Origin: Candidatus Altiarchaeota archaeon
Lineage (GTDB): Archaea > Altiarchaeota > Altiarchaeia > IMC4 > SCGC-AAA252-I15
Direction of reading: 5' to 3'
DNA: 34,570 nucleotides
Assembly: GCA_043804895.1 (NCBI GenBank)
Contig: JAZDIN010000052.1
Span: 1-34,570, forward strand
Shown: positions 12,938 through 34,120 of the stretch, in pieces
How the letters are laid out: each line of letters opens with the position of its first letter
Position numbering within the stretch: the stretch's first letter is position 1
The notes under the pieces: generated by a model
What the model was told of the DNA's origin: nothing
The model's database searches: none
What the model saw: only the letters and a program-made list of their open reading frames with translations
Made by a program: the position numbers and the translations under genes

Positions 12938-14445
12938 TCGTCCTCGACTTCGGAGGCCAATACTGCCACCTAATAGCAAGGAGGATCAGAGAGTTGGGGG
13001 TCTACTCCGAGGTCATGGCCTCGGATACCTCTGCAGATGAGCTTGGCAGGATAGGGAACCTGAAAGGTGTCATACTCTCCGGAGGCGCGGCCTCAGTCTA
13101 CGACAGTAACTCCCCGAAATGTTCAAAAGACATACTGGAAGTCGGAGTCCCACTCCTTGGTATATGCTACGGCCACCAGCTCATAGCCCACCTCCTCGGA
13201 GGGAAGGTCGATGTCGGGAAGGCAGGAGAATACGGTCTCACGAAGTTGACGGTCCGAGGCGGCGGACTTTTTTCCGGCCTTGGCAAATCCACCCCAGTCT
13301 GGATGAACCACAGGGATATTGTGACAAAACTCCCAGAAGGGTTTAAGGTGCTGGCATCCACAACCCACTCGAAGATCGCAGCATACGGGAACGATAAGAG
13401 GAGAATCTACGGCGTCCAATTCCACCCTGAAGTCACGCACACGAAAAAAGGGATGAAGATACTCAGCAACTTCGTGAGAATCTGCAAGGCCTCCAAGGAC
13501 TGGAGTATGAAAGAATTCATCACAAAATCGGTGAAGGAGGCGAAGTCCATGATTGGGGGCAGGAGGGCGGTAATCGGCCTCTCCGGTGGAGTAGACTCCT
13601 CAACGGCGGCGGTCCTGTTAAGTCGCGCATTAGGCGAGAAGTTGACTGCAGTCTACGTCGACACTGGCTTAATGCGCTATAAGGAGACGGAGTTCATGGA
13701 GAAGACCTTCACAGGCAGGAAGATGGAATTCAGGATTATCAGAGCTGCGGACAGGTTCTTTGGTGCATTAAAGGGCGTCACAGACCCTGAGCAAAAAAGG
13801 AAGGTAATCGGTGGACTCTTCGTGGACATATTCGAGGAGGAGGCCGAGAGGGTTGGCGCGGAGGTTCTTGTGCAGGGGACGATATACAGCGACAGGATAG
13901 AGTCCGGGGTCACAAAGCATTCGGACAACATCAAATCCCACCACAACGTCGGCGGCCTCAAAAAGGACATGAAGCTGGAAGTCTACGAGCCGCTGAGAGA
14001 TCTGTACAAGGACGAAGTCAGGCAGATAGCGAAGCAACTGAAGCTACCTAGCGAAATCATCACAAGACACGTGTTCCCGGGGCCGGGCCTCGGAATCAGA
14101 ATACTCGGTGAAGTCACTCAGGAGAAGGCTGACATAGCCAGAAAAGCCGGGTATATCATCGAGGAGGAGCTGAAGAGGGCCAAAGCATATGAGAGGTATT
14201 GGATGGGCTTCGCAGTCCTCCTGCCTGTGAAGAGCGTTGGAATACAAGGGGATTCAAGAAGCTACAAATACCCTGTGGTAGTCAGGATAATAGAGTCGAA
14301 GGACGCGATGACAGCCAACTTCAGCAAAGTACCCTACGACATACTCGAGGCCATCTCCACAAGGATAACAAACGAAATAACCGAAGTCAACAGGGTCGTA
14401 TACGACATAACTAACAAGCCGCCGGCGACGATGGAATGGGAGTGA
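12925..14445 (+). CDS. guaA: GMP synthase (glutamine-hydrolysing), single-chain form
   Basis: LDFGGQY, GICYGHQ, QFHPEV, LSGGVDS, IKSHHNVGG, FPGPGL, KPPATMEWE. Confidence 0.97.
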   Translation: MDKIIVLDFGGQYCHLIARRIRELGVYSEVMASDTSADELGRIGNLKGVILSGGAASVYDSNSPKCSKDILEVGVPLLGICYGHQLIAHLLGGKVDVGKAGEYGLTKLTVRGGGLFSGLGKSTPVWMNHRDIVTKLPEGFKVLASTTHSKIAAYGNDKRRIYGVQFHPEVTHTKKGMKILSNFVRICKASKDWSMKEFITKSVKEAKSMIGGRRAVIGLSGGVDSSTAAVLLSRALGEKLTAVYVDTGLMRYKETEFMEKTFTGRKMEFRIIRAADRFFGALKGVTDPEQKRKVIGGLFVDIFEEEAERVGAEVLVQGTIYSDRIESGVTKHSDNIKSHHNVGGLKKDMKLEVYEPLRDLYKDEVRQIAKQLKLPSEIITRHVFPGPGLGIRILGEVTQEKADIARKAGYIIEEELKRAKAYERYWMGFAVLLPVKSVGIQGDSRSYKYPVVVRIIESKDAMTANFSKVPYDILEAISTRITNEITEVNRVVYDITNKPPATMEWE

Positions 14446-15383
14446 AAATAAAGGATATTGGGGGGGAGTTCGCGCTTATTGACCGTGTGGCGCGGAGGGG
14501 TGGGGCCGTAGTCGGCGTCGGGGACGATGCCGCAGTTCTCAAGTACACTAAAGAAAAACACCTTCTCTTCACCACAGACATGTTGTGTGAAGGCGACCAC
14601 TTCAACCTCCTTTGGAGCACGCCCAAGGAGATTGGGATGAAGGCTATGGAGGTGAACGTTTCAGACATAGGAGCTATGGGCGGCCTCCCAACGTACGCCG
14701 TCATCTCATTGTCCTTGAAGCCTGACACGTCGGTCGAGTTCATGGATGGATTCTATGAGGGAATCTACAAGGCCGCGGACGAGTACAACGTGAAGGTTGT
14801 TGGCGGGGACACGACCCATGCGGCCCTGATGGTGGTGAACGTCGCGCTCCTCGGTGAGGTGGAGAAGGACATGCTCTCCCTCCGCTCGGATGCTAAGGTG
14901 GGGGACCTAATCTGCGTGACAGGAGACCTCGGCAAAAGCACTGCTGGGTTGGAACTTCTGAAGGCTGGAATCAAAGGCGACGTGAAGGCTCACCTGCAGC
15001 CGAAGTGCAGGCTAAAAGAGGCGAGGAAGATAGCTAAATACTGTAACGCGTTGATAGACGTCTCAGACGGCCTCGCAAGCGAGGTCAACCACATCTGCGA
15101 GATGGGCAGAGTAGGGGCTGTCGTCCACAGGGATAGGATTCCAGTATCAAAGTCGACTGTGGAGTCTGCGAGGAAGGTCGGCAAAGACCCGGTAGAATAC
15201 GCCTTAAACGGCGGGGAGGACTTCGAACTAGTGTTCACAGTGCCGAAGAAGAGAATGGGGAAAATTAAGGTAGACTGTCCGGTAACGGTCGTCGGCGAGA
15301 TACTCGAGAGGAAACAGGGGGCTCTCCTGGAGTCAAACGGTACAAGACGGCAGCTAAAAGGCGGATACGACCACTTTAAATGA
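14442..15383 (+). CDS. thiL: Thiamine-monophosphate kinase
   Basis: GEFALI, GVGDDAA, NVSDIGAMGG, GGDT, IDVSDGL, GGEDFEL. GTG start overlaps the guaA stop (GTGA). Confidence 0.95.
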   Translation: MKIKDIGGEFALIDRVARRGGAVVGVGDDAAVLKYTKEKHLLFTTDMLCEGDHFNLLWSTPKEIGMKAMEVNVSDIGAMGGLPTYAVISLSLKPDTSVEFMDGFYEGIYKAADEYNVKVVGGDTTHAALMVVNVALLGEVEKDMLSLRSDAKVGDLICVTGDLGKSTAGLELLKAGIKGDVKAHLQPKCRLKEARKIAKYCNALIDVSDGLASEVNHICEMGRVGAVVHRDRIPVSKSTVESARKVGKDPVEYALNGGEDFELVFTVPKKRMGKIKVDCPVTVVGEILERKQGALLESNGTRRQLKGGYDHFK

Positions 15384-23779: not shown

Positions 23780-23931
23780 CTTAAAAACCCTCCAAAAGTT
23801 AACCTAAAACGTAGCAGAAGTATAGGGAATAGCTATATAAAAGCGTTTTCTGGCGGAGCGAGTTGCCGGGTGTGCAGCGCTCTAACACATACTCTGGTAA
23901 TATACGCCTGAAGCCATATCTATCAACAATT

Positions 23932-25629
23932 ATGGAGAAACATGGGAAAGAAAAGAGTATCTGGCTCTTCTTAGCCATTGGCTTAGTGCTGACATTGGCA
24001 ATATCCCTGTACCAGATAGCTGTAATCCAGAAGTCGTTCAATATCACCTCGGTGGCCTACTCGCCTGACGGCGTCAACTTCAGGCCGATTAACCTGCCCT
24101 CATTCGTAAACGAGGGCTACTTCATGATAAACTTCACGACAGACAGGAGAAACCTCAACCTTTATCTCTTCGCTGATGACTGCATAGAATACGGTTACCT
24201 TAACGGCGCCAAATTCTCCGGCGGCGAATGCACCCCCTGCAAACACTGTAGGGGTGTACTGGGCAAGGGGACATTCGACCCAGCCGCAGGAAGACAAAAC
24301 ACCCTCCTAATTAAAACAAGAAAAATCTCAGGCGGGACGCCGTTTTTTGTGGTTGAGAATGAGGAGAACGACGTTGTTTGGAGGGCACTGGCGGTTCTAT
24401 CAATCATGGCACTCTCAATCCTTATCTACTCAAGGGTTGCGGGCAGGGATCTTCGAACAGACGTCAAAACCATCAGGGCTGCCATATCGAAGAGACATGG
24501 TTTGGCGTTGGTTCTGCTCATGTCACTGGCAGTCCAGCTTGCCATGACACCGTGGGGGCAGTCAAGAGATATCGTAGTCTGGTTGATACGCGCCGAGAAC
24601 ATCATACACAAGGGGGATTGGTCATTCACAAGAACTGCGCCCGACTACCTGTACATGGAGGAGACGAACATGTGCAAGCCGCCTGGGGCATACCTCTACG
24701 AGTTCATAATCCTCCGTCTGCTCTTCGGATTCAACCACATCTACACTACGTTCCTTGTGAAGTTGCCCCCGATTGCAGGAAACCTCCTCGTCGGTTATGC
24801 TGTATGGTCAATCCTCATGGGAAGGGTTAAAAACAAACGAATCCCGCTCGTCGCCGCAAGCTTATACGTCCTAAATCCAGTCGTCATACTGCAGGCGGCA
24901 TATCTTGGGAAACACGATTCACTCGTAATAGGGTTCTTGCTCATGGCATTAAAAAACCTTGCGAAAAGGCGGTTCTCGCTTTACTACGGCCTGGCAGTCC
25001 TTGGCAAGCAGTTCCCCCTCCTCATGGCCCCATGGATACTGTTGCAAAGGGGGATGATAAGAAAGATGATCCTAGCAGGTTGTGTCTTCGTCATCCTCGC
25101 CTTCCCGTTCCTGCTAGACAACCCCATGTTGTTCTTCGAACGTCTAATCAAAACAAGCACTGAGAAGGCCCCGAGCGACCTGTCATGGATGATTAACCTG
25201 AAGCCGCTTGGGGAGGGGTTTGTGCTCACAGCCAGTAAAGTCTTCCTTGGAATCTACTTCCTGACGGTTGTTCTCGTAGCATTTGCCGTGGCTGCAGATG
25301 CCTATGCCATGGGGGCTATAGTCTTCACCCTCTTCGCAGTCTTCAGCAAGGTGGTGTTCGAACAGTACGTGTTGTGGAGCCTTCCCTTCCTAATCATAAC
25401 GTATTATCTGACAAAAAAGAGGACAACAATGGCCGCTTTCATAATAGGCTCAGTCTCATGCGCAATAAACAACGAGGATTACCGTATGCTGCCTGAAAAC
25501 CTGGCCAACCTCTGGAATATCCTACTGGCTTTGACTTACCTCGCAGCTGCCGTTGACTTGGCTCGCACTGGATTCACCCCGCGGAAGGTTAGGGACAGGG
25601 TTCACGCAGCATGGCAGAAATTAAAGTAA
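23932..25629 (+). CDS. GT-C-fold membrane glycosyltransferase (GT87/PIG-M-like) with a Cys-containing N-terminal ectodomain
   Basis: Many TM helices, with SRD...W, KPP, KLP, LNP, GKHD and KQFP motifs. Start moved to ATG 23932. Confidence 0.75.
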   Translation: MEKHGKEKSIWLFLAIGLVLTLAISLYQIAVIQKSFNITSVAYSPDGVNFRPINLPSFVNEGYFMINFTTDRRNLNLYLFADDCIEYGYLNGAKFSGGECTPCKHCRGVLGKGTFDPAAGRQNTLLIKTRKISGGTPFFVVENEENDVVWRALAVLSIMALSILIYSRVAGRDLRTDVKTIRAAISKRHGLALVLLMSLAVQLAMTPWGQSRDIVVWLIRAENIIHKGDWSFTRTAPDYLYMEETNMCKPPGAYLYEFIILRLLFGFNHIYTTFLVKLPPIAGNLLVGYAVWSILMGRVKNKRIPLVAASLYVLNPVVILQAAYLGKHDSLVIGFLLMALKNLAKRRFSLYYGLAVLGKQFPLLMAPWILLQRGMIRKMILAGCVFVILAFPFLLDNPMLFFERLIKTSTEKAPSDLSWMINLKPLGEGFVLTASKVFLGIYFLTVVLVAFAVAADAYAMGAIVFTLFAVFSKVVFEQYVLWSLPFLIITYYLTKKRTTMAAFIIGSVSCAINNEDYRMLPENLANLWNILLALTYLAAAVDLARTGFTPRKVRDRVHAAWQKLK

Positions 25630-26450: not shown

Positions 26451-27752
26451 ATGGACGTTGCAGTGGTCGGTGGCGGGATATCTGGGCTAACAGTAGCTTA
26501 CGAGCTTGCAAAACGCGGAACTAAAGTAGTGGTCTTCGAGAAACACCGGGAGGTGGGCGGAATAGCAGGCTCACTTGAGGCAGTCAAGGGAGTTCAACTT
26601 GAGAAATACTACCACCATTTCTTCACCAACGACAGCGACCTCGTTACCCTGCTTCGAGAACTCGGCTTAGAGAAGTCGCTGCAGACGTTCCCGACGAAGA
26701 TGGGCTTCCTATGCGACGGGAAGGTATACCCATTCACCAGCCCAATGGATCTACTCAGATTCAACCCCCTCAAAATACTAGACAGAATCCGCCTCGGCTT
26801 AACCCTCCTATACCTCCAAAGCCTGAAAAGTCCAGGACACCTAGACCCGGAAAGCGGCCTTGAATGGCTTAGAAGATACGCTGGCAACGCTTCAGTCGAA
26901 AAGATATGGGGGCCCCTTTTGAAGACAAAGTTCGGCAGCAACAACCAGAACATATCAGCTTCATGGATATGGGGGCGAGTATCCGAAAGAGGACGCTCCA
27001 GGGGCGCCAAGAAGCTCAAAGAGAGACTGAATTACATCCAAGGCGGCTGCCACACACTACTCACTCGCCTGGTGGACTCGATAGTCTCAAAAGGTGGCAT
27101 GATAAAGGTCGGCAGCGAAGTCACAAAGTTGAGACAACGTGGGGGTAAAATTGAGTGTATGCTGAAAAACGGTGAAACACACCTCTTCGACAAAGTAGTG
27201 GCCGCAGTCGAAACCCCGACATTCCTCACGATCACCGAAGGCCTTCCTGCCGATTATGCCACAAGAATCAGCGGAATAAAATACAATGGAGTAATATGCG
27301 CAGTCATAGTCCTCAAGCGGCCTCTGAGTGACGTGTACTGGCTTAACATATCCGACCCTACCATCTCGTTCGGCGGGGTCATAGAACACACAAACTTTGT
27401 TCCCCCAGAGTATTACGGGGGTTATAGCATAGTCTACCTGTTCAACTACGTTGACAAGGACAGCCACTTCAGGGCTATGAAAGACGATGATATCATCGGA
27501 TTATACCTCGCTGACCTTGGGAGGATATTCCCGGATTTTGCGAAGGATTCATTAGTCCGGTACTCCATGTTCAGGGATGAATACGCCACACCAGTATACG
27601 TCAAGGGGTTCTCGCAACTCAAACCAGGCTATGTTACTCCTACGAAAAACGTCTACCTGGTCAACAACACCCAGGTATACCCCCATGGGAGGAACTTGAA
27701 CAACCTCATAAGAAACTCTAAAGACGCGGTCAACGCCATACTCAAAGAATGA
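26451..27752 (+). CDS. FAD-dependent oxidoreductase (protoporphyrinogen oxidase/amine oxidase-like)
   Basis: VVGGGISGL, EKHREVGG, EKYYHHFF, YWLNI, IEHTN. Confidence 0.88.
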   Translation: MDVAVVGGGISGLTVAYELAKRGTKVVVFEKHREVGGIAGSLEAVKGVQLEKYYHHFFTNDSDLVTLLRELGLEKSLQTFPTKMGFLCDGKVYPFTSPMDLLRFNPLKILDRIRLGLTLLYLQSLKSPGHLDPESGLEWLRRYAGNASVEKIWGPLLKTKFGSNNQNISASWIWGRVSERGRSRGAKKLKERLNYIQGGCHTLLTRLVDSIVSKGGMIKVGSEVTKLRQRGGKIECMLKNGETHLFDKVVAAVETPTFLTITEGLPADYATRISGIKYNGVICAVIVLKRPLSDVYWLNISDPTISFGGVIEHTNFVPPEYYGGYSIVYLFNYVDKDSHFRAMKDDDIIGLYLADLGRIFPDFAKDSLVRYSMFRDEYATPVYVKGFSQLKPGYVTPTKNVYLVNNTQVYPHGRNLNNLIRNSKDAVNAILKE

Positions 27753-29464
27753 AAAAAAATATCGTCCGGCGAATCCACCTGGGGCTTATACTAGCATCCG
27801 CAGCCGTCCTCATAGCCTCGACATACCTTGCATATGACAACAGTGAGGCGTTCAAGGTCGTCAACACCATGTACTCGAAAGACGGCAGGAGCTTCAGGCC
27901 AGCGAACCTGCCATTCTTCATCGATGACGGGTACTTTCTAGTAAATTTCACCACAAACAGGGAAAAACTAAGCCTAGTATTCTTCGCTAAAGACTGCATA
28001 GAGGATGGTCTGCTAAATGGCCAGAGATTCTATCACGGTGACTGCAGCCGTTGCAAGCATTGCAGGGGCGTCAAGGGCACCGGCATCTTCAACCAGACCG
28101 AACGGAAATGGAACACACTGGTCATAAAGACAAGGGCCCTCGAGGGGATACCCCTCTTCTTTGTTGAAAACGAGGATACTGGTGTTCTATGGCGTTTTCT
28201 GGCATACGCCTCGGCTTCGACGCTGATGGCCTTACTACTCCTCTGGTACCTGGGAAAAGACATCATGCAAACACTTGAGAAAACAATATCATGGGTCAAG
28301 AAAAACAAGGGGATAACCCTACTGCTCACCTTATCCTTCACCATCTCGATGCTTCTCGCCCCAATCGGCCAGAAATCAACAGACGTTGACGGCTGGATTA
28401 TCCGCGCCGAGAACATAATACACAAGACTGATTGGACCTTCACCAAAACCGAACCTGACTATTTTGTCAACGAGCATTTCAACATGGCCAAGCCGCCTGG
28501 AGCGTACCTCTACGAGTTCATAATCCTTCGTCTGCTCTTCGGCTTCAACCACATATACGCCCAAACACTCGTGAAACTGCCGCCCATAATAGGCAACCTA
28601 ATACTGTGTTATCTGATCTGGTCCATTCTCAGCTCGAGGCTGAAGGACAGGAGAACCCCGCTCATTGCCGCGGCTGCGTATGCCCTAAACCCTGTCGTCA
28701 TATTCCAGGCTGCAGTACTCGGCAAACACGATGCCCTCACCTTAGCGCTCGTCCTTTTGGCTTTGAGGAATCTCAGCAAGCGGCGTTTCTCCATATACTA
28801 CGGGCTTTCCCTAGTCACAAAGCAGTTGCCTCTGTTCTTCCTTCCATGGCTTTTAATCCAGAAGCGGATGGTACGGCAGTTGCTTGCAGCGCTCGTCATA
28901 CCCTTACTCATATTCTCCCCGTACCTACTGGACGACCCGGTATTCTTCATCAACCGCCTGGTTAAGACGCACACGGAGAGGGAGCCTTTCGAGCTGACAT
29001 GGATGGTCAACCTGAAGGATTGGGGCGTCAGCAACACAGCCCTTGTGAGCGAACTAGTCCTGTTCCTCTACTTTGCGCTGGTGCTCATCATATCAGTCGG
29101 GATGAGGGACGAGCCGTACGTCATCGCCGCGGCGATATTCTCCCTCTTCATCGCATTGAACAAATCCGTGCTGGAGCAGTACATCATGTGGTCCATGCTG
29201 TTCCTGCTGCTCGTTTACTTCATAAAAGGTAACAGGCTCGCAGGATTCACATACCTCATCGGCACATTCACCTGCATCATAAGCCATGAAGGCGAGAATC
29301 TACTACCAAAGGACTTAATCAACCAGTGGACAATCGTCCTGGCGCTGATATACCTAACAACCGCCGCAACCATCATCATGAGCTCATTCAGAATAGAAAA
29401 CGTAAGGGAATCAATTGGCGGATGGCTCACCTACGCCAACATTAAAAGGCGAAAATCCCGCTAG
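27749..29464 (+). CDS. GT-C-fold membrane glycosyltransferase, paralog of 23932..25629
   Basis: Colinear similarity with the first copy, including the identical block KPPGAYLYEFIILRLLFGFNHIY. Confidence 0.75.
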   Translation: MKKNIVRRIHLGLILASAAVLIASTYLAYDNSEAFKVVNTMYSKDGRSFRPANLPFFIDDGYFLVNFTTNREKLSLVFFAKDCIEDGLLNGQRFYHGDCSRCKHCRGVKGTGIFNQTERKWNTLVIKTRALEGIPLFFVENEDTGVLWRFLAYASASTLMALLLLWYLGKDIMQTLEKTISWVKKNKGITLLLTLSFTISMLLAPIGQKSTDVDGWIIRAENIIHKTDWTFTKTEPDYFVNEHFNMAKPPGAYLYEFIILRLLFGFNHIYAQTLVKLPPIIGNLILCYLIWSILSSRLKDRRTPLIAAAAYALNPVVIFQAAVLGKHDALTLALVLLALRNLSKRRFSIYYGLSLVTKQLPLFFLPWLLIQKRMVRQLLAALVIPLLIFSPYLLDDPVFFINRLVKTHTEREPFELTWMVNLKDWGVSNTALVSELVLFLYFALVLIISVGMRDEPYVIAAAIFSLFIALNKSVLEQYIMWSMLFLLLVYFIKGNRLAGFTYLIGTFTCIISHEGENLLPKDLINQWTIVLALIYLTTAATIIMSSFRIENVRESIGGWLTYANIKRRKSR

Positions 29465-30186: not shown

Positions 30187-31566
30187 TCAGAAGTAGATGT
30201 CCCGTTCCCCCTCTTCGACTCTTTTGAGGCGGTTTTTAGTTTCTTTCCGGGTTTTTTCGTCGGTTATCTCCTTTGTGTACCTTTCAAGTATCTTTTCGCC
30301 TAGTTTTTTGTTCTCGTCTGAGGCGTAGTCCATAAGGTATTCCTTGAACGTTAGGAGCGCGTTCGGCCTGCAAAGTTCGTGTATGTTCCCTGGTTTCGCG
30401 AGTTCCATGAAATGTTTCCCTGTGCGGCCTTTGCGGTAGCATGCTGTGCAGAAGCTTGGGAGGAGGTTGTTTTCAAGCATGGCTTGTATCAGCTCCTCAA
30501 CTGTCCTCTTGTCTGCCGTGTGGAATTGCGTTAGTTCCTCTTTTTTTCCGTAGCCTCCTGGGGATGTCCTGGAGGCTGCGGACGTCTGTGATATGCCTAT
30601 CTTAAAGGCTTTCGTCCTGGTTTCCTCACTTTCCCTAGTGGAGATTATCATCCCAGTGTAGGGGACTGCCATCCTGAGTATGGCGATTACCTTCAGAAGT
30701 TCATCCTCAGTGACTGGGTGGGGTGGTTTCTTATACCTGACTGTGTCTGCTGGCTGCCAGCGTGGCACAGAGAACGTGTGCGGGCCGACTCCGTATTTTC
30801 TGTCGAGGTATTGTGCGTGTGACACTAGGGCGAGCACTTCGAACCTGTAGTCGTAGAGTCCGAAGAGGACTCCAAGTCCTACGTCGTCTATGCCTGCCTT
30901 GAACGCCCTGTCGTGGGCGAACAGTTGCCGCTCGTAATCTGCTTTCGGGCCCTTATGTATTCTCTCATATGTCTTGCGATGGTATGTCTCCTGGAATAGC
31001 TGGTAGGTGCCTATTCCAGCCTCCTTGAGTTTCCTGTAGTCCTCTACTTCTGTGGCTGCGATGTTGACGTTCACCCTCCTTATCTCCCCCTTGCCTGACT
31101 TGGTTGCGTATATTGTCTTGATAACGTCCACGACATAGTCTATCGGATTCATCTCATGGTCTTCGCCGAATTCTAGTAGCAGTCTCTTGTGTCCCATGTC
31201 CTCCAGCACCCTCACCTGCTCCTCCACCTCCTTGAGTGTCAGTTTTTTTCGCGGAGTTTGGTTGCTTGCGTGGAAGCCGCAGTATTCGCAGTCGTTGACG
31301 CAGAAGCTGGAGACGTAGAGGGGGGCGAAGAAGACGAGGCGTTCACCGTATATCTCGTCCTTTATTTTTGAGGCTGTCTTGTGCATCTCAGCTATAAGCT
31401 TAGGGTCTGTCGTGTTCAGCAGGCAGGCCACATCCTCAAGGTCGAGTCCCTTCTTCTTCGCTGCTTTCTTAAGTATCTTTTTTATCCTCTCCTCGGAGGG
31501 TTCCCTAGTATCCTTAAGTAGCCTGTTGATCTTACCCTCGTCAACGACATCCTTGACGTTAAGCAT
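30187..31566 (-). CDS. hydG: HydG-like radical SAM tyrosine lyase ([FeFe]-hydrogenase maturase family)
   Basis: FAPLYVSSFCVNDCEYCGF, IRRVNVN, GIGTYQLFQETY, GPHTFSVPR, and the C-terminal CTAC-X22-C auxiliary-cluster motif that ThiH lacks. Confidence 0.9.
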   Translation of the reverse strand: MLNVKDVVDEGKINRLLKDTREPSEERIKKILKKAAKKKGLDLEDVACLLNTTDPKLIAEMHKTASKIKDEIYGERLVFFAPLYVSSFCVNDCEYCGFHASNQTPRKKLTLKEVEEQVRVLEDMGHKRLLLEFGEDHEMNPIDYVVDVIKTIYATKSGKGEIRRVNVNIAATEVEDYRKLKEAGIGTYQLFQETYHRKTYERIHKGPKADYERQLFAHDRAFKAGIDDVGLGVLFGLYDYRFEVLALVSHAQYLDRKYGVGPHTFSVPRWQPADTVRYKKPPHPVTEDELLKVIAILRMAVPYTGMIISTRESEETRTKAFKIGISQTSAASRTSPGGYGKKEELTQFHTADKRTVEELIQAMLENNLLPSFCTACYRKGRTGKHFMELAKPGNIHELCRPNALLTFKEYLMDYASDENKKLGEKILERYTKEITDEKTRKETKNRLKRVEEGERDIYF

Positions 31567-32863
31567 TCGCCTTCACCCCCAAGTCGGTAGGCGCACGCCC
31601 GAGCGAGTAGAGCAGCTTTAAAGTCTCCTTAATCTGATCTTCCGTGTCAGACGAGTTACTGTGGCCTGGGTATATGCTGTAGTACCGTCTGTGCGAAAGC
31701 GGAGTCAGATTAACCATCAGGGAGTTCCCGCCTGTTAAAAGGCCCCTGCGTCTGCAGTCGCCGCCCAAGGCTTCAAGCGCAGTTGTTACCAGGATTTTCG
31801 CCTGAGGGTCTGCGAGCCTGCTTACTGCAAGAGCCTTCAATACTGTGTCAACCTCAGGCGCGGGAGCGTCTGCCAGTGGCGTCTGGGGAGATGGTATGAA
31901 CGGGCCGAATGAGTACATCTCTGCTTTCAGCGACTTTGTTAAGAGTATGTCGTTGGCAATGTCCTCTTTAGTCTGCCCTGGCAGTCCGATCAGCGAGCCT
32001 GTGGCGACGACAAAGCCGAGTTTCACAGCGTATTCTATCGTCTTTATCCTATCCTTGAGCGTTGACTTAGAGCCTGCGTGCATCTTACTGTAGAGCCTCG
32101 GATTAGACGTCTCAAACCTCAGAAGCACACCCCTCGCCCCAGCCTCGTACATCTCCCTATAACAGTCTAAGTCTCTGGTGCCAACGCTCATGAACAATAG
32201 CACACCGCAGCGTTCCTTTATCCCCCTGATAATCTGAGCTAGAATCTCTGGAGTGTACCAGTCATCCTCCCCGGACTGCAGCACCAGCGCCCTGAATCCG
32301 TGAACATTCACCGCCTCAGCTGCTGCTTCGACTATCTCCTCCACGCTCATCCTATACCTCGGCAGTGTACTGTTGCCTTCCCTAATGCCGCAGTACAGGC
32401 AGTTGTTTCCGCAGTGATTCGAGAATTCTATGATGCCGTGGACGCAGCAGGAGTTCTTCAGACTCTCATGCCTCACCCTGTTCGCGCTGCTATAGAGGAA
32501 ACTCAACTCCTTCGGGTTGGTCGTATCCAACAGCTGCAGAATATCCTCCCTCTCCAATCCTCCCGCCTTAGCTTTCCCAATAATCCTGCTGAATCCCTCA
32601 CTAACCTTCTCAACACCAGCATTCTTCACCGTCTCCTCATCAAGCCGTTGCAGCTTGAAGAAAGCCTCCCTCCACAACTCCAACACATCCTTAGCTTCCT
32701 CTTCAGGCATCACTTGCACTACGAACCCGCCCTGCGCGTAGACGTAGTCCCCAGGATTCACGTTTCTTAGCTCATTCAACACGTTCCTGCGTTCCCCGAA
32801 GTAGTCGACGACCGCTGTCCTGCCTGCTACCTCAACGACCCTGCCAGGTATGGAATAGCACAT
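31559..32863 (-). CDS. HypC/HupF-like domain fused to a HydE-like radical SAM enzyme
   Basis: N-terminal MCYSIPGRVVEV...AVVDY.G..R.V...PGDYV...GF...EEEA, then IIEFSNHCGNNCLYCGIR, LQSGED, LLRFET, GPFIP..TPL, TTAL and YSIYPG. GGAGGT RBS before ATG 32863. Confidence 0.88.
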   Translation of the reverse strand: MCYSIPGRVVEVAGRTAVVDYFGERRNVLNELRNVNPGDYVYAQGGFVVQVMPEEEAKDVLELWREAFFKLQRLDEETVKNAGVEKVSEGFSRIIGKAKAGGLEREDILQLLDTTNPKELSFLYSSANRVRHESLKNSCCVHGIIEFSNHCGNNCLYCGIREGNSTLPRYRMSVEEIVEAAAEAVNVHGFRALVLQSGEDDWYTPEILAQIIRGIKERCGVLLFMSVGTRDLDCYREMYEAGARGVLLRFETSNPRLYSKMHAGSKSTLKDRIKTIEYAVKLGFVVATGSLIGLPGQTKEDIANDILLTKSLKAEMYSFGPFIPSPQTPLADAPAPEVDTVLKALAVSRLADPQAKILVTTALEALGGDCRRRGLLTGGNSLMVNLTPLSHRRYYSIYPGHSNSSDTEDQIKETLKLLYSLGRAPTDLGVKANA

Positions 32864-32864
32864 A

Positions 32865-34064
32865 CTATCCCCTACCTCCACCGTCGAAGACTTTGAGTGC
32901 GCAGTACTTACCGCACATGCTGCACTCCCCGCCTACCTTACGTTTCCCATGTTTGACTCCGACTTTCGGGTCCAACGCCAGCTTAAACATCCTGTTCCAG
33001 TCTAATTTTCTCCTCGCCCTACTCATCTCATCATCCCTGCCCCTATTCCCCAACTTCACAATGTCTGCCGCATGTGCAGCAATCTTCGAGGCGATAACCC
33101 CCTCATGGACGTCCTCCTCCGATGGGAGCCCAAGATGTTCGCTTGGAGTGACGTAACAGAGGAAGTCTGCGCCATACATCCCAGCCAAGGCCCCGCCAAT
33201 AGCTGAGGTGATATGGTCATGGCCTACTCCTATGTCAGTCACCAAAGGCCCGAGCACGTAAAACGGCGCATTATGGCATACGCTCTTCTGCAAACGCATA
33301 TTATACTCAATCTGATCCAAAGGCACATGACCCGGCCCCTCCACAATAACCTTCACACCCTGCTTCCAAGCTTTAGAAGTCAAATGGCCTAGCACCCTCA
33401 ACTCACTAAGCTGCGCACTGTCAGTCGCATCATGGATGCAACCCGGCCTCAAAGCGTCGCCGAGGCTGACAGTAACCTCATACTCAGCCAACACCTCCAT
33501 GATATCCCCAAAACCCGTGTAGAGCGGATTCTCAGCCTTATGCTTCAACATCCACGCGGCCAGGAAGCATCCGCCGCGGCTGGTGATGGGAATAATCCTC
33601 TTTTTAGCCCGCCTCACACCCTCCCTGGTCAAGCCCGCGTGGACTGTCATGAAATCCACCCCCTCACGGCACTGCAATTCAACCTCCCTCAGATAATCCT
33701 CTAAGGTGAAATCCAATCCATGCTCAGCATAAACCTGATAAATCGGGACAGTCCCGAAAGGAACCTTACTCCCCTTCAAAATAGCCTTCCTCAACCCCCT
33801 CGTGTCCCCGTCCACACTCAAATCCATCAACGTGTCAGCCCCGGCCTCCACAGCCGCCTTAGCCTTCCTCAACTCCTCCCTCAGGCCGCTACTACTCGGG
33901 GAAACACCGATGTTAGCGTTAACCTTAGTCGACACACCAGCGCCAATAGCAAGAGGATTGATGCCCCGGCGGGCATTCTTCACCAGAACCAGACTACCAT
34001 CACGCACACGCTTAGTTAACCTAGCCTTAGACACGCCCTCAACCTTAGCAACGTAATCCAACAT
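32865..34064 (-). CDS. thiC: Phosphomethylpyrimidine synthase (ThiC family)
   Basis: KVNANIG, GADTLMDLS, GTVPIYQ, SRGG, SLGDALRPG, EGPGH, PFYVLGP, CYVTPSEHL, CSMCGKYC. Confidence 0.92.
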   Translation of the reverse strand: MLDYVAKVEGVSKARLTKRVRDGSLVLVKNARRGINPLAIGAGVSTKVNANIGVSPSSSGLREELRKAKAAVEAGADTLMDLSVDGDTRGLRKAILKGSKVPFGTVPIYQVYAEHGLDFTLEDYLREVELQCREGVDFMTVHAGLTREGVRRAKKRIIPITSRGGCFLAAWMLKHKAENPLYTGFGDIMEVLAEYEVTVSLGDALRPGCIHDATDSAQLSELRVLGHLTSKAWKQGVKVIVEGPGHVPLDQIEYNMRLQKSVCHNAPFYVLGPLVTDIGVGHDHITSAIGGALAGMYGADFLCYVTPSEHLGLPSEEDVHEGVIASKIAAHAADIVKLGNRGRDDEMSRARRKLDWNRMFKLALDPKVGVKHGKRKVGGECSMCGKYCALKVFDGGGRG

Positions 34065-34120
34065 ACTCCCCAACTATTTAACGCAACCGGGTATATAATA
34101 AGACTCAAGCCCGCTTGGGG

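Follow-up and report, generated by a model that had tools for sequence, protein, structure and literature searches.

A HypC-HydE fusion coupled to HydG in Altiarchaeota and other archaeal and bacterial lineages: a candidate HypDEF-independent source of the Fe-CO/CN unit in [NiFe] hydrogenases

The window analyzed in this study is a stretch of 34,570 nucleotides (nt) from a Candidatus Altiarchaeota archaeon (contig JAZDIN010000052.1 of assembly GCA_043804895.1), and it encodes a HypC-like domain fused to a HydE-like radical S-adenosylmethionine (SAM) domain and, overlapping this gene, a HydG. The two genes are here called the module. Judging from their sequences and distribution, they probably provide [NiFe] hydrogenases with their Fe-CO/CN unit by way of HydG and independently of HypD, HypE and HypF, and they would most likely stand in for HypC, HypD, HypE and HypF. 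This [NiFe] reading rests on domain architecture, fold, conservation, phyletic pattern and operon context. In the literature consulted, we found neither a HypC-HydE fusion nor maturation of [NiFe] enzymes by way of HydG described; the supplementary maturase lists of PMC11216029 may include such genes as HydE/HydG.

Architecture and conservation of the fusion and of HydG

The predicted fold of the N-terminal domain is that of HypC. Pfam HupF_HypC (PF01455) matched residues 7-70 of the open reading frame (ORF) read from GTG with 57.5 bits (cut-off 28.5) over model positions 1-65 of 65, the score for NCBIfam TIGR00074 was 48.1 bits (cut-off 48), and a profile built from 46 fusion N-termini matched HypC of T. 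kodakarensis (2z1c) with an E value of 3.3e-15. The AlphaFold2 (AF2) model of residues 1-100, with a predicted local distance difference test (pLDDT) value of 87.1, consisted of five strands followed by a helix. Its top Foldseek match was HypC chain 2z1c_B, with a template modeling (TM) score of 0.89 (target) and a root-mean-square deviation of 1.9 Å, and the best matches were HypC chains. Cys2 was invariant in both alignments of fusion proteins (52/52 and 46/46); across the 52 aligned sequences, M1, Y3, I5, P6, G7 and Q44 were likewise invariant. Gln44, in the GDYVYAQGGF segment of the window protein, is aligned opposite the His of T. kodakarensis HypC, in agreement with the His replacement pointed out in the original prediction. 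The conserved His of the HypC motif GDxVLVHxGF is His51 in E. coli numbering. To our knowledge, the HypC family is known solely from hydrogenase maturation.

The remainder of the protein is HydE-like. It contains a Radical_SAM domain (Pfam PF04055, 72.3 bits), aligns with residues 8-345 of T. maritima HydE (7o1o, E value 1.1e-62) and scored 247.1 bits with the HydE model TIGR03956 (NCBIfam), slightly below its cut-off of 254.6; the match to the HmdB model TIGR03957 was weak (64.6 bits against a cut-off of 320.9). Cysteines C151, C155 and C158 were invariant in the fusion alignment, and their motif is kept in 90% or more of the rows of either clade, fused or canonical. The AF2 model of the full-length fusion (pLDDT 92.2, predicted TM score 0.92) suggests that the HypC and HydE domains are held in a defined mutual arrangement.

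The HydE part by itself was used for a FastTree phylogeny of 143 rows, 14 others having been omitted because of their length; the tree was midpoint-rooted and had no outgroup. All 23 fused rows, together with eight unfused rows of which some are N-terminal fragments, were separated from 112 canonical HydE rows by a branch labeled 99* (FastTree), which must be taken as a split and not as a rooted clade because the tree has no outgroup. On this sequence evidence, the HydE part of the fusion is a distinct paralogue of canonical HydE. C140 and H142 each occur in 94% of fused-clade rows and in 0% of canonical HydE, where position 142 is Arg in 92% of the rows and position 140 is His or other residues; Phe224 of the fused clade is Thr in 89% of canonical HydE. 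In addition, four fusion genomes that have both HydA and HydF (G049, G044, G048 and G033) encode a separate canonical HydE of 350-370 bits next to fusions of 220-259 bits, so that the [FeFe] line in these genomes has its own HydE.

HydG of the window is a full member of its family, as had been proposed. It scored 572.2 bits with TIGR03955 (cut-off 312.15) over model positions 12-470 of 470, and the CX3CX2C (CVNDCEYC), C-terminal CX2CX22C (CTAC...22...C) and GPHT motifs were recognized by eye in its translation. With the ThiH model it reached 302.5 bits, below the cut-off of 380.

The fusion is not unique to this assembly. Relatives were sought in species-representative genomes with an alignment-based query, after a single-protein query had given none, and a pattern scan yielded 410 stretches encoding a fusion relative in many bacterial and archaeal phyla. 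PF01455 and PF04055 occurred together in 119 of the best 120 protein clusters, with a top non-self identity of 64%. As judged by record titles, the best 80 of the 410 stretches include Aenigmatarchaeota, Altiarchaeota, Woesearchaeota/Nanoarchaeota and Micrarchaeota among archaea (DPANN included), and Margulisiibacteriota, Omnitrophota, Chlamydiae, Caldatribacterium (Atribacterota relatives), Patescibacteria and others among bacteria. In P0121 (906 aa), P0132 (881 aa) and P0035 (727 aa, partial), HypC, HydE and HydG are joined in a single polypeptide. A second fusion group (P0130, P0133, P0135 and P0137) is more divergent and branches close to the base of the fused clade; its N-termini, MCLTIP or MCIALP, are nearer to classical HypC.

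Distribution of the module and genomic context

To survey gene content, 50 species-representative fusion genomes were picked by eye out of the best 80 loci, with preference for longer contigs and a wide taxonomic range, and this choice preceded all counting; the host genome was added where the total is 51. The loci dropped were L018, L019, L023, L032, L034, L036, L038, L044, L046, L047, L049, L051, L053, L055, L058, L059, L062, L066, L070-L073, L075, L077, L079, L081, L084-L086 and L088. HypD was found in none of the 50 genomes nor in the host genome, and no HypE or HypF scored over its cut-off in any of the 51. The [NiFe] large subunit (PF00374) was present in 47 of the 50 and also in the host genome, HydG exceeded its cut-off in 48/51 and HypA in 35/51 (the host not among them). 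HydF was over the cut-off in nine of the 50, with one further near-full match at 301 bits, leaving 40 genomes without it. HydA was detected in ten at E ≤ 1e-10 and was absent from 40; when five fusion genomes, two of them closed chromosomes, were rechecked at E ≤ 0.01, none gave a HydA. In the named control genomes, the HypC, HypD and PF00374 searches all matched the same four. Weak HypE- and HypF-like matches did not exceed 126 bits, where the cut-offs are 251.6 and 466.1, and were discarded as PurM/ThiL-type, acylphosphatase or YrdC-type paralogues; an AIRS-family gene at 14436-15383 of the window is among them.

The phylum of the host was sampled with 61 genomes, the large subunit being scored at E ≤ 1e-10. 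HypD occurred in 22 of them and HydG in eight, but never in the same genome (0/61). HydG and a large subunit were present in all five fusion carriers (the host genome, or G000, and G073, G084, G088 and G092), HypD in none of them. Thirty-two genomes encoded a large subunit: 21 with HypD, five with the fusion and HydG, none with both systems and six with neither. The hypergeometric probability that all five fusion genomes fall among the 11 HypD-negative ones is about 0.002, a value which ignores kinship and overstates the association since related genomes are not independent. Within the genus of the host, G000 and G088 carry the fusion and HydG, while G089 and G090 carry HypC and HypD. HydA was found only in G000 and G089 of this genus, and in two of the five fusion genomes of the phylum; given that G089 has HydA without HydG and G088 has the module without HydA, HydA tracks neither maturation system in the genus. 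GTPase-type HypB was not found in any of the five fusion genomes of the phylum, from which no conclusion is drawn; archaea may use another HypB type.

Some other arrangements were observed in this phylum. In several HypD-less genomes a standalone HypC lies directly after a group-3-type large subunit (G088:C51:14648-15986, G084:C91:5789-7198, G087:C152:9723-11062, G100:C12 and G101:C15); G088 and G084 have it in addition to the fusion. HypC and HypD matches were also located in one open frame of 447 aa (G065:C6:2283-3488), a possible HypC-HypD fusion.

Gene neighborhoods were counted by ORF clustering in the best 80 of the 410 stretches (81 loci when the window is included). A [NiFe] large-subunit gene was found at 37 loci, HycI at 28, HypA at 20 and a Rex-like regulator at 20. 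HydG was present at 48 and within 1 kb of the fusion at 42, and 14 loci, many of them short, had neither HydG nor a large subunit near the fusion. None of the 80 places the fusion in a hydA operon. The typical operon, read with Pfam at one Omnitrophota locus, starts with Fer4_22 and continues with FAD/NAD subunit, small subunit, large subunit, HycI, short HypA, fusion, Rex-like regulator and HydG. This operon is group-3b-like, and the fusion and HydG occupy the slot expected for HypC-F. The large-subunit gene is the immediate upstream neighbor of the fusion in a complete genome of Caldatribacterium. With the absence of HypDEF, the presence of large subunits, these operons and the phylum contrast, comparative genomics supports one of the destinations put forward in the original prediction, namely a [NiFe] hydrogenase as recipient of the CO/CN iron that derives from HydG.

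As regards the accompanying genes, the Rex-like regulator (CoA_binding plus Put_DNA-bind_N) is encoded between the fusion and HydG at L043:11389-12021. The fusion-adjacent HypA is short, of about 80 aa, and matches only positions 1-70 of the 112-position model (L043:9663-9908 and relatives).

In the window itself, the ORF list gives three closely packed minus-strand genes, ThiC-like, fusion and HydG (Table 1). The ATG at 32863 is 1 nt after the ThiC stop, is preceded by a Shine-Dalgarno-like GGAGGT at positions −16 to −11 and opens the sequence M-C-Y-S-I-P-G; it is the likely start because all 52 aligned homologues begin with MC. The fusion gene (end at 31559) and HydG (start at 31566) overlap by 8 nt. 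As the original prediction had stated for the operon, no hydF or hydrogenase gene was found inside the window. ThiC as a functional partner was rejected, being within 10 kb of the fusion at only 2/81 loci (the window and L087); its proximity here and in Caldatribacterium (L087:1229-2524) is probably a coincidence. Elsewhere in the window, two paralogous large proteins of one cluster, of 588 and 571 aa, are encoded on the plus strand at 23863-25629 and 27749-29464. The 588-aa protein had no Pfam match, and the surroundings of both paralogues contain glycosyltransferase and GtrA-like genes. The host genome encodes Cdc6/Orc1 and an FttA-type factor, and is therefore archaeal; the closest relatives with a name belong to Altiarchaeota.

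Table 1. Features of the module and the adjacent ThiC-like gene in the window.
Feature	Position	Strand	Basis or remark
HypC-HydE fusion gene, 434 aa from ATG at 32863	31559-32863	-	Stop codon 31559-31561; Pfam, NCBIfam, AF2
Fusion ORF read from GTG	31559-32881	-	ORF list
HypC-like domain, residues 1-70; predicted five-strand barrel, then start of long helix (residues 54-80)	32654-32863	-	Pfam, profile, AF2, Foldseek
Cys2 codon; N-terminal cysteine after Met removal	32858-32860	-	Invariant in alignments
HydE-like radical SAM domain, residues 85-434	31562-32611	-	Alignment with T. maritima HydE 7o1o
Radical SAM CX3CX2C motif, C151/C155/C158	32390-32413	-	Alignment
Clade-specific C140-V-H142, just ahead of the radical SAM motif	32438-32446	-	Alignment of fused and canonical rows
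HydG, 459 aa, 8-nt overlap with fusion gene	30187-31566	-	NCBIfam TIGR03955 and motifs
ThiC-like gene	32865-34073	-	NCBIfam ThiC, 560.6 bits

Proposed route and alternative explanations

In the route that we propose, HydG would cleave tyrosine and assemble an Fe-CO/CN species on its auxiliary cluster, a reaction established for canonical HydG. The HydE-like domain, with its altered residues near the radical SAM cluster, would then process this species, and the fused HypC domain would take up the Fe(CN)x(CO)y unit via its invariant N-terminal Cys2. The HypC domain would subsequently dock on the apo large subunit, which in the host would be the Ehb-type protein of contig C27, and pass the iron unit to it; nickel insertion and then C-terminal processing would follow. 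A more detailed scheme, suggested by the conserved residues and put forward tentatively as a possibility that we hold to be rather doubtful, is that the amine and thiolate of demethionylated Cys2 mimic the fifth-iron cysteine of HydG, so that the unit would be built on or passed to Cys2, remodeled to Fe(CN)2CO by the HydE domain with Cys140, His142 and Phe224, and inserted by the HypC domain.

The host assembly (1.58 Mb in 71 contigs, 88.7% complete) contains, outside the window, one [NiFe] large subunit (contig C27) and one HydA (contig C40). Contig C27 ends within an operon that codes for a 4Fe-4S protein, a small subunit, the large subunit of 382 aa and a NuoH-like membrane subunit. The large subunit matched PF00346 (172 bits) and PF00374 (71.8 bits) of Pfam, and it has the motifs EKICGLCSHFH and DPCLSCSNR, with the N-terminal CGxC and C-terminal DPCxxC metal ligands, and a C-terminal extension of 18 residues. 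Its C68, C71, C358 and C361 were invariant across 44 relatives, and the annotation of its closest named relatives is energy-converting hydrogenase B subunit N (EhbN-type; group 4). Complex prediction for this large subunit and the HypC domain gave a median score of 0.48, the best of three controls giving 0.00, with a partner pLDDT of at least 74 and a contact agreement between runs of at least 49%. Among 80 solved complexes and 110 mismatched pairs, 58 and two, respectively, reached that mark; only seven of the 80, and both mismatches, did so at 0.60 or less. The predicted docking gives weak support to the [NiFe] reading. The HydA gene (L007 1288-3135, minus strand) is a canonical-looking ORF of 615 aa with H-cluster motifs recognized by eye, and it lies beside a NuoF-like subunit; the HydA of G089 resembles it, and G089 is without any HydG. 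The window HydG is the sole HydG of the host. In this 88.7%-complete assembly, profile searches gave neither a separate HypC nor HypD, HypE or HypF over cut-off, the fusion was the only HydE-like gene, with no canonical HydE, and HydF was not found (best match 34 bits, to the GTPase part only). The possibility raised initially, that hydF lies elsewhere in the genome, thus found no confirmation.

Several observations weigh against the [NiFe] route. The 50 surveyed genomes were the author's choice among the best 80 of 410 loci, and relatives among them are not independent. No large subunit was seen in three of the 50. Six large-subunit genomes of the phylum (G067, G082, G087, G100, G101 and G106) have neither HypD nor HydG, so that a missing HypD in these metagenome-assembled genomes is not always paired with the module; these six are 70-92% complete, and incompleteness or another route may explain them. 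In the host, the module is not beside a hydrogenase and its neighbors are ThiC and glycosylation genes; the 88.7%-complete assembly yielded no HypA, HycI or GTPase-type HypB. The His conserved in canonical HypC is replaced by an invariant Gln44 in the fusions. It must also be noted that the known product of HydG carries two CO and one CN, which does not match the one CO and two CN that the [NiFe] site needs. Finally, the host has HydA with neither HydF nor canonical HydE found at 88.7% completeness, for which reason an additional [FeFe] role is possible there.

Two alternative explanations involve HydA. According to one, which had been suggested at the outset and which we regard as quite unlikely, [FeFe] maturation would proceed without HydF, the HypC domain acting as scaffold or carrier that delivers iron made by HydG and HydE to HydA. 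The canonical-looking HydA of the host, next to a NuoF-like subunit and with no HydF or other HydE, would fit this, as would the fusion genomes G027 and G042, which also have HydA without HydF, and an alternative pathway for archaeal [FeFe] genomes without known maturases is inferred in the main text of PMC11216029. However, HydA is absent from 40/50 fusion genomes and from the five rechecked at the permissive threshold, and only two of the five fusion genomes of the phylum have it. The independence of the two traits in the genus (G088 with fusion and HydG but no HydA, G089 with HydA but no HydG), the separate canonical HydE kept by the tested HydA plus HydF genomes, and the position of the fusion near a [NiFe] large subunit at 37 of 80 loci and never in a hydA operon also speak against it. 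As a role of the family, the substitution of HydF by the HypC domain is therefore not sustained. According to the other explanation, restricted to the host and in our opinion unlikely, a single HydG and the fusion would serve the Ehb-type [NiFe] enzyme and also aid H-cluster synthesis for HydA. The host does have both hydrogenase types with one HydG and one HydE-like gene, and the complete Caldatribacterium genome has a single HydG alongside HydF, canonical HydE, HydA and the fusion, so one HydG could plausibly feed two lines. Nevertheless, HydF and canonical HydE, which would complete the [FeFe] line, were not found in the host assembly, and HydA in this genus seems independent of HydG because G089 has a similar HydA and no HydG.

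A target other than hydrogenases, whether for an Fe-CO/CN or other organometallic unit, or an unrelated radical SAM reaction (e.g., thiamine-related), is very improbable. ThiC is immediately upstream of the fusion and HydG is homologous to ThiH (302.5 bits), and both the three fusion genomes with no large subunit seen and the 14/80 loci with no HydG or large subunit nearby could be accommodated in this way. Against this, ThiC is within 10 kb at only two of the 81 loci, the HydG score (572 bits) is well over the HydG cut-off of 312 and its ThiH score is under the ThiH cut-off of 380, the operon partners are large subunit, small subunit, HycI and HypA, and the HypC family is not known outside hydrogenase maturation. 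Delivery of the Fe-CO/CN unit to [NiFe] hydrogenases is the reading that we retain as probable.

Relation to known maturation systems

If the [NiFe] reading is true, the Fe(CN)2CO unit could be reached by two complete routes, the second being the module, in which HydG is coupled to a HypC carrier and which would provide a concrete, testable source of CO under anaerobic conditions. The module would also connect the two main classes of hydrogenase through their maturation, and a set of two genes could ease the heterologous production of [NiFe] hydrogenases. Should the Cys2-tethered scheme hold, two proteins would replace four, many uncultured anaerobes would draw both the CO and the CN of their [NiFe] hydrogenases from tyrosine, and [NiFe] and [FeFe] maturation would share a chemical core. 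Since the family spans many candidate phyla, it matters for reading hydrogen metabolism from metagenomes. According to the sections available of a 2025 review (PMC12134894), anaerobic synthesis of the [NiFe] cofactor requires six Hyp proteins and the anaerobic CO source is the most pressing open question; HydG is not mentioned in those sections. Most archaeal genomes with [FeFe] hydrogenases are without known maturases, five of 130 having all three and three an incomplete set, in the main text of PMC11216029 (Cell 2024), where "HypC" never appears as a separate word and "hypABCDEF" is in a figure legend. In the part available of PMC4975002, on Altiarchaeales, there is nothing about maturation.

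With the HydE/HydG/HydF system of [FeFe] hydrogenases, the module shares a radical SAM domain that aligns over its full length with T. maritima HydE and a HydG which is a full member of its family, and in the window the fusion and HydG genes are adjacent and translationally coupled. It differs in that HydF and HydA are each absent from 40/50 fusion genomes, and in that its HydE belongs to a separate clade (Cys, His and Phe in place of His or other, Arg and Thr) with an N-terminal HypC domain. With the HypC-HypD-HypE-HypF system (T. kodakarensis HypC, 2z1c; HypCD, 3vyr), it has in common the HypC fold, the N-terminal Met-Cys and an operon with large subunit, HycI and HypA. In contrast, the fusion genomes are without HypD, HypE and HypF, His is changed to Gln and the HypC domain is joined to a radical SAM enzyme; in addition, the module would obtain CN and CO from tyrosine, where the Hyp system uses carbamoyl phosphate and a still unknown source of CO.

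HypX, described in the sections available of PMC12134894 as an aerobic accessory protein supplying CO in [NiFe] maturation, is similar in being an add-on route that gives a diatomic ligand to the [NiFe] iron. Unlike the module, which is found without HypCD and whose HydG could yield both CO and CN, HypX acts with HypCD and provides only CO, from formyl-tetrahydrofolate. HmdB/HcgA, of the [Fe]-hydrogenase cofactor, is likewise a HydE/BioB-like radical SAM paralogue recruited to another hydrogenase class, but the fusion is far under the TIGR03957 cut-off, no Hmd context was seen around it, and HmdB is without a HypC domain. In the algal HydEF, HydE is fused to a carrier protein of its own pathway. 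There, however, the partner is HydF, it is placed on the C-terminal side, and the protein serves an [FeFe] hydrogenase, whereas the fusion reported here carries a HypC domain at its N-terminus and would probably serve [NiFe] enzymes.

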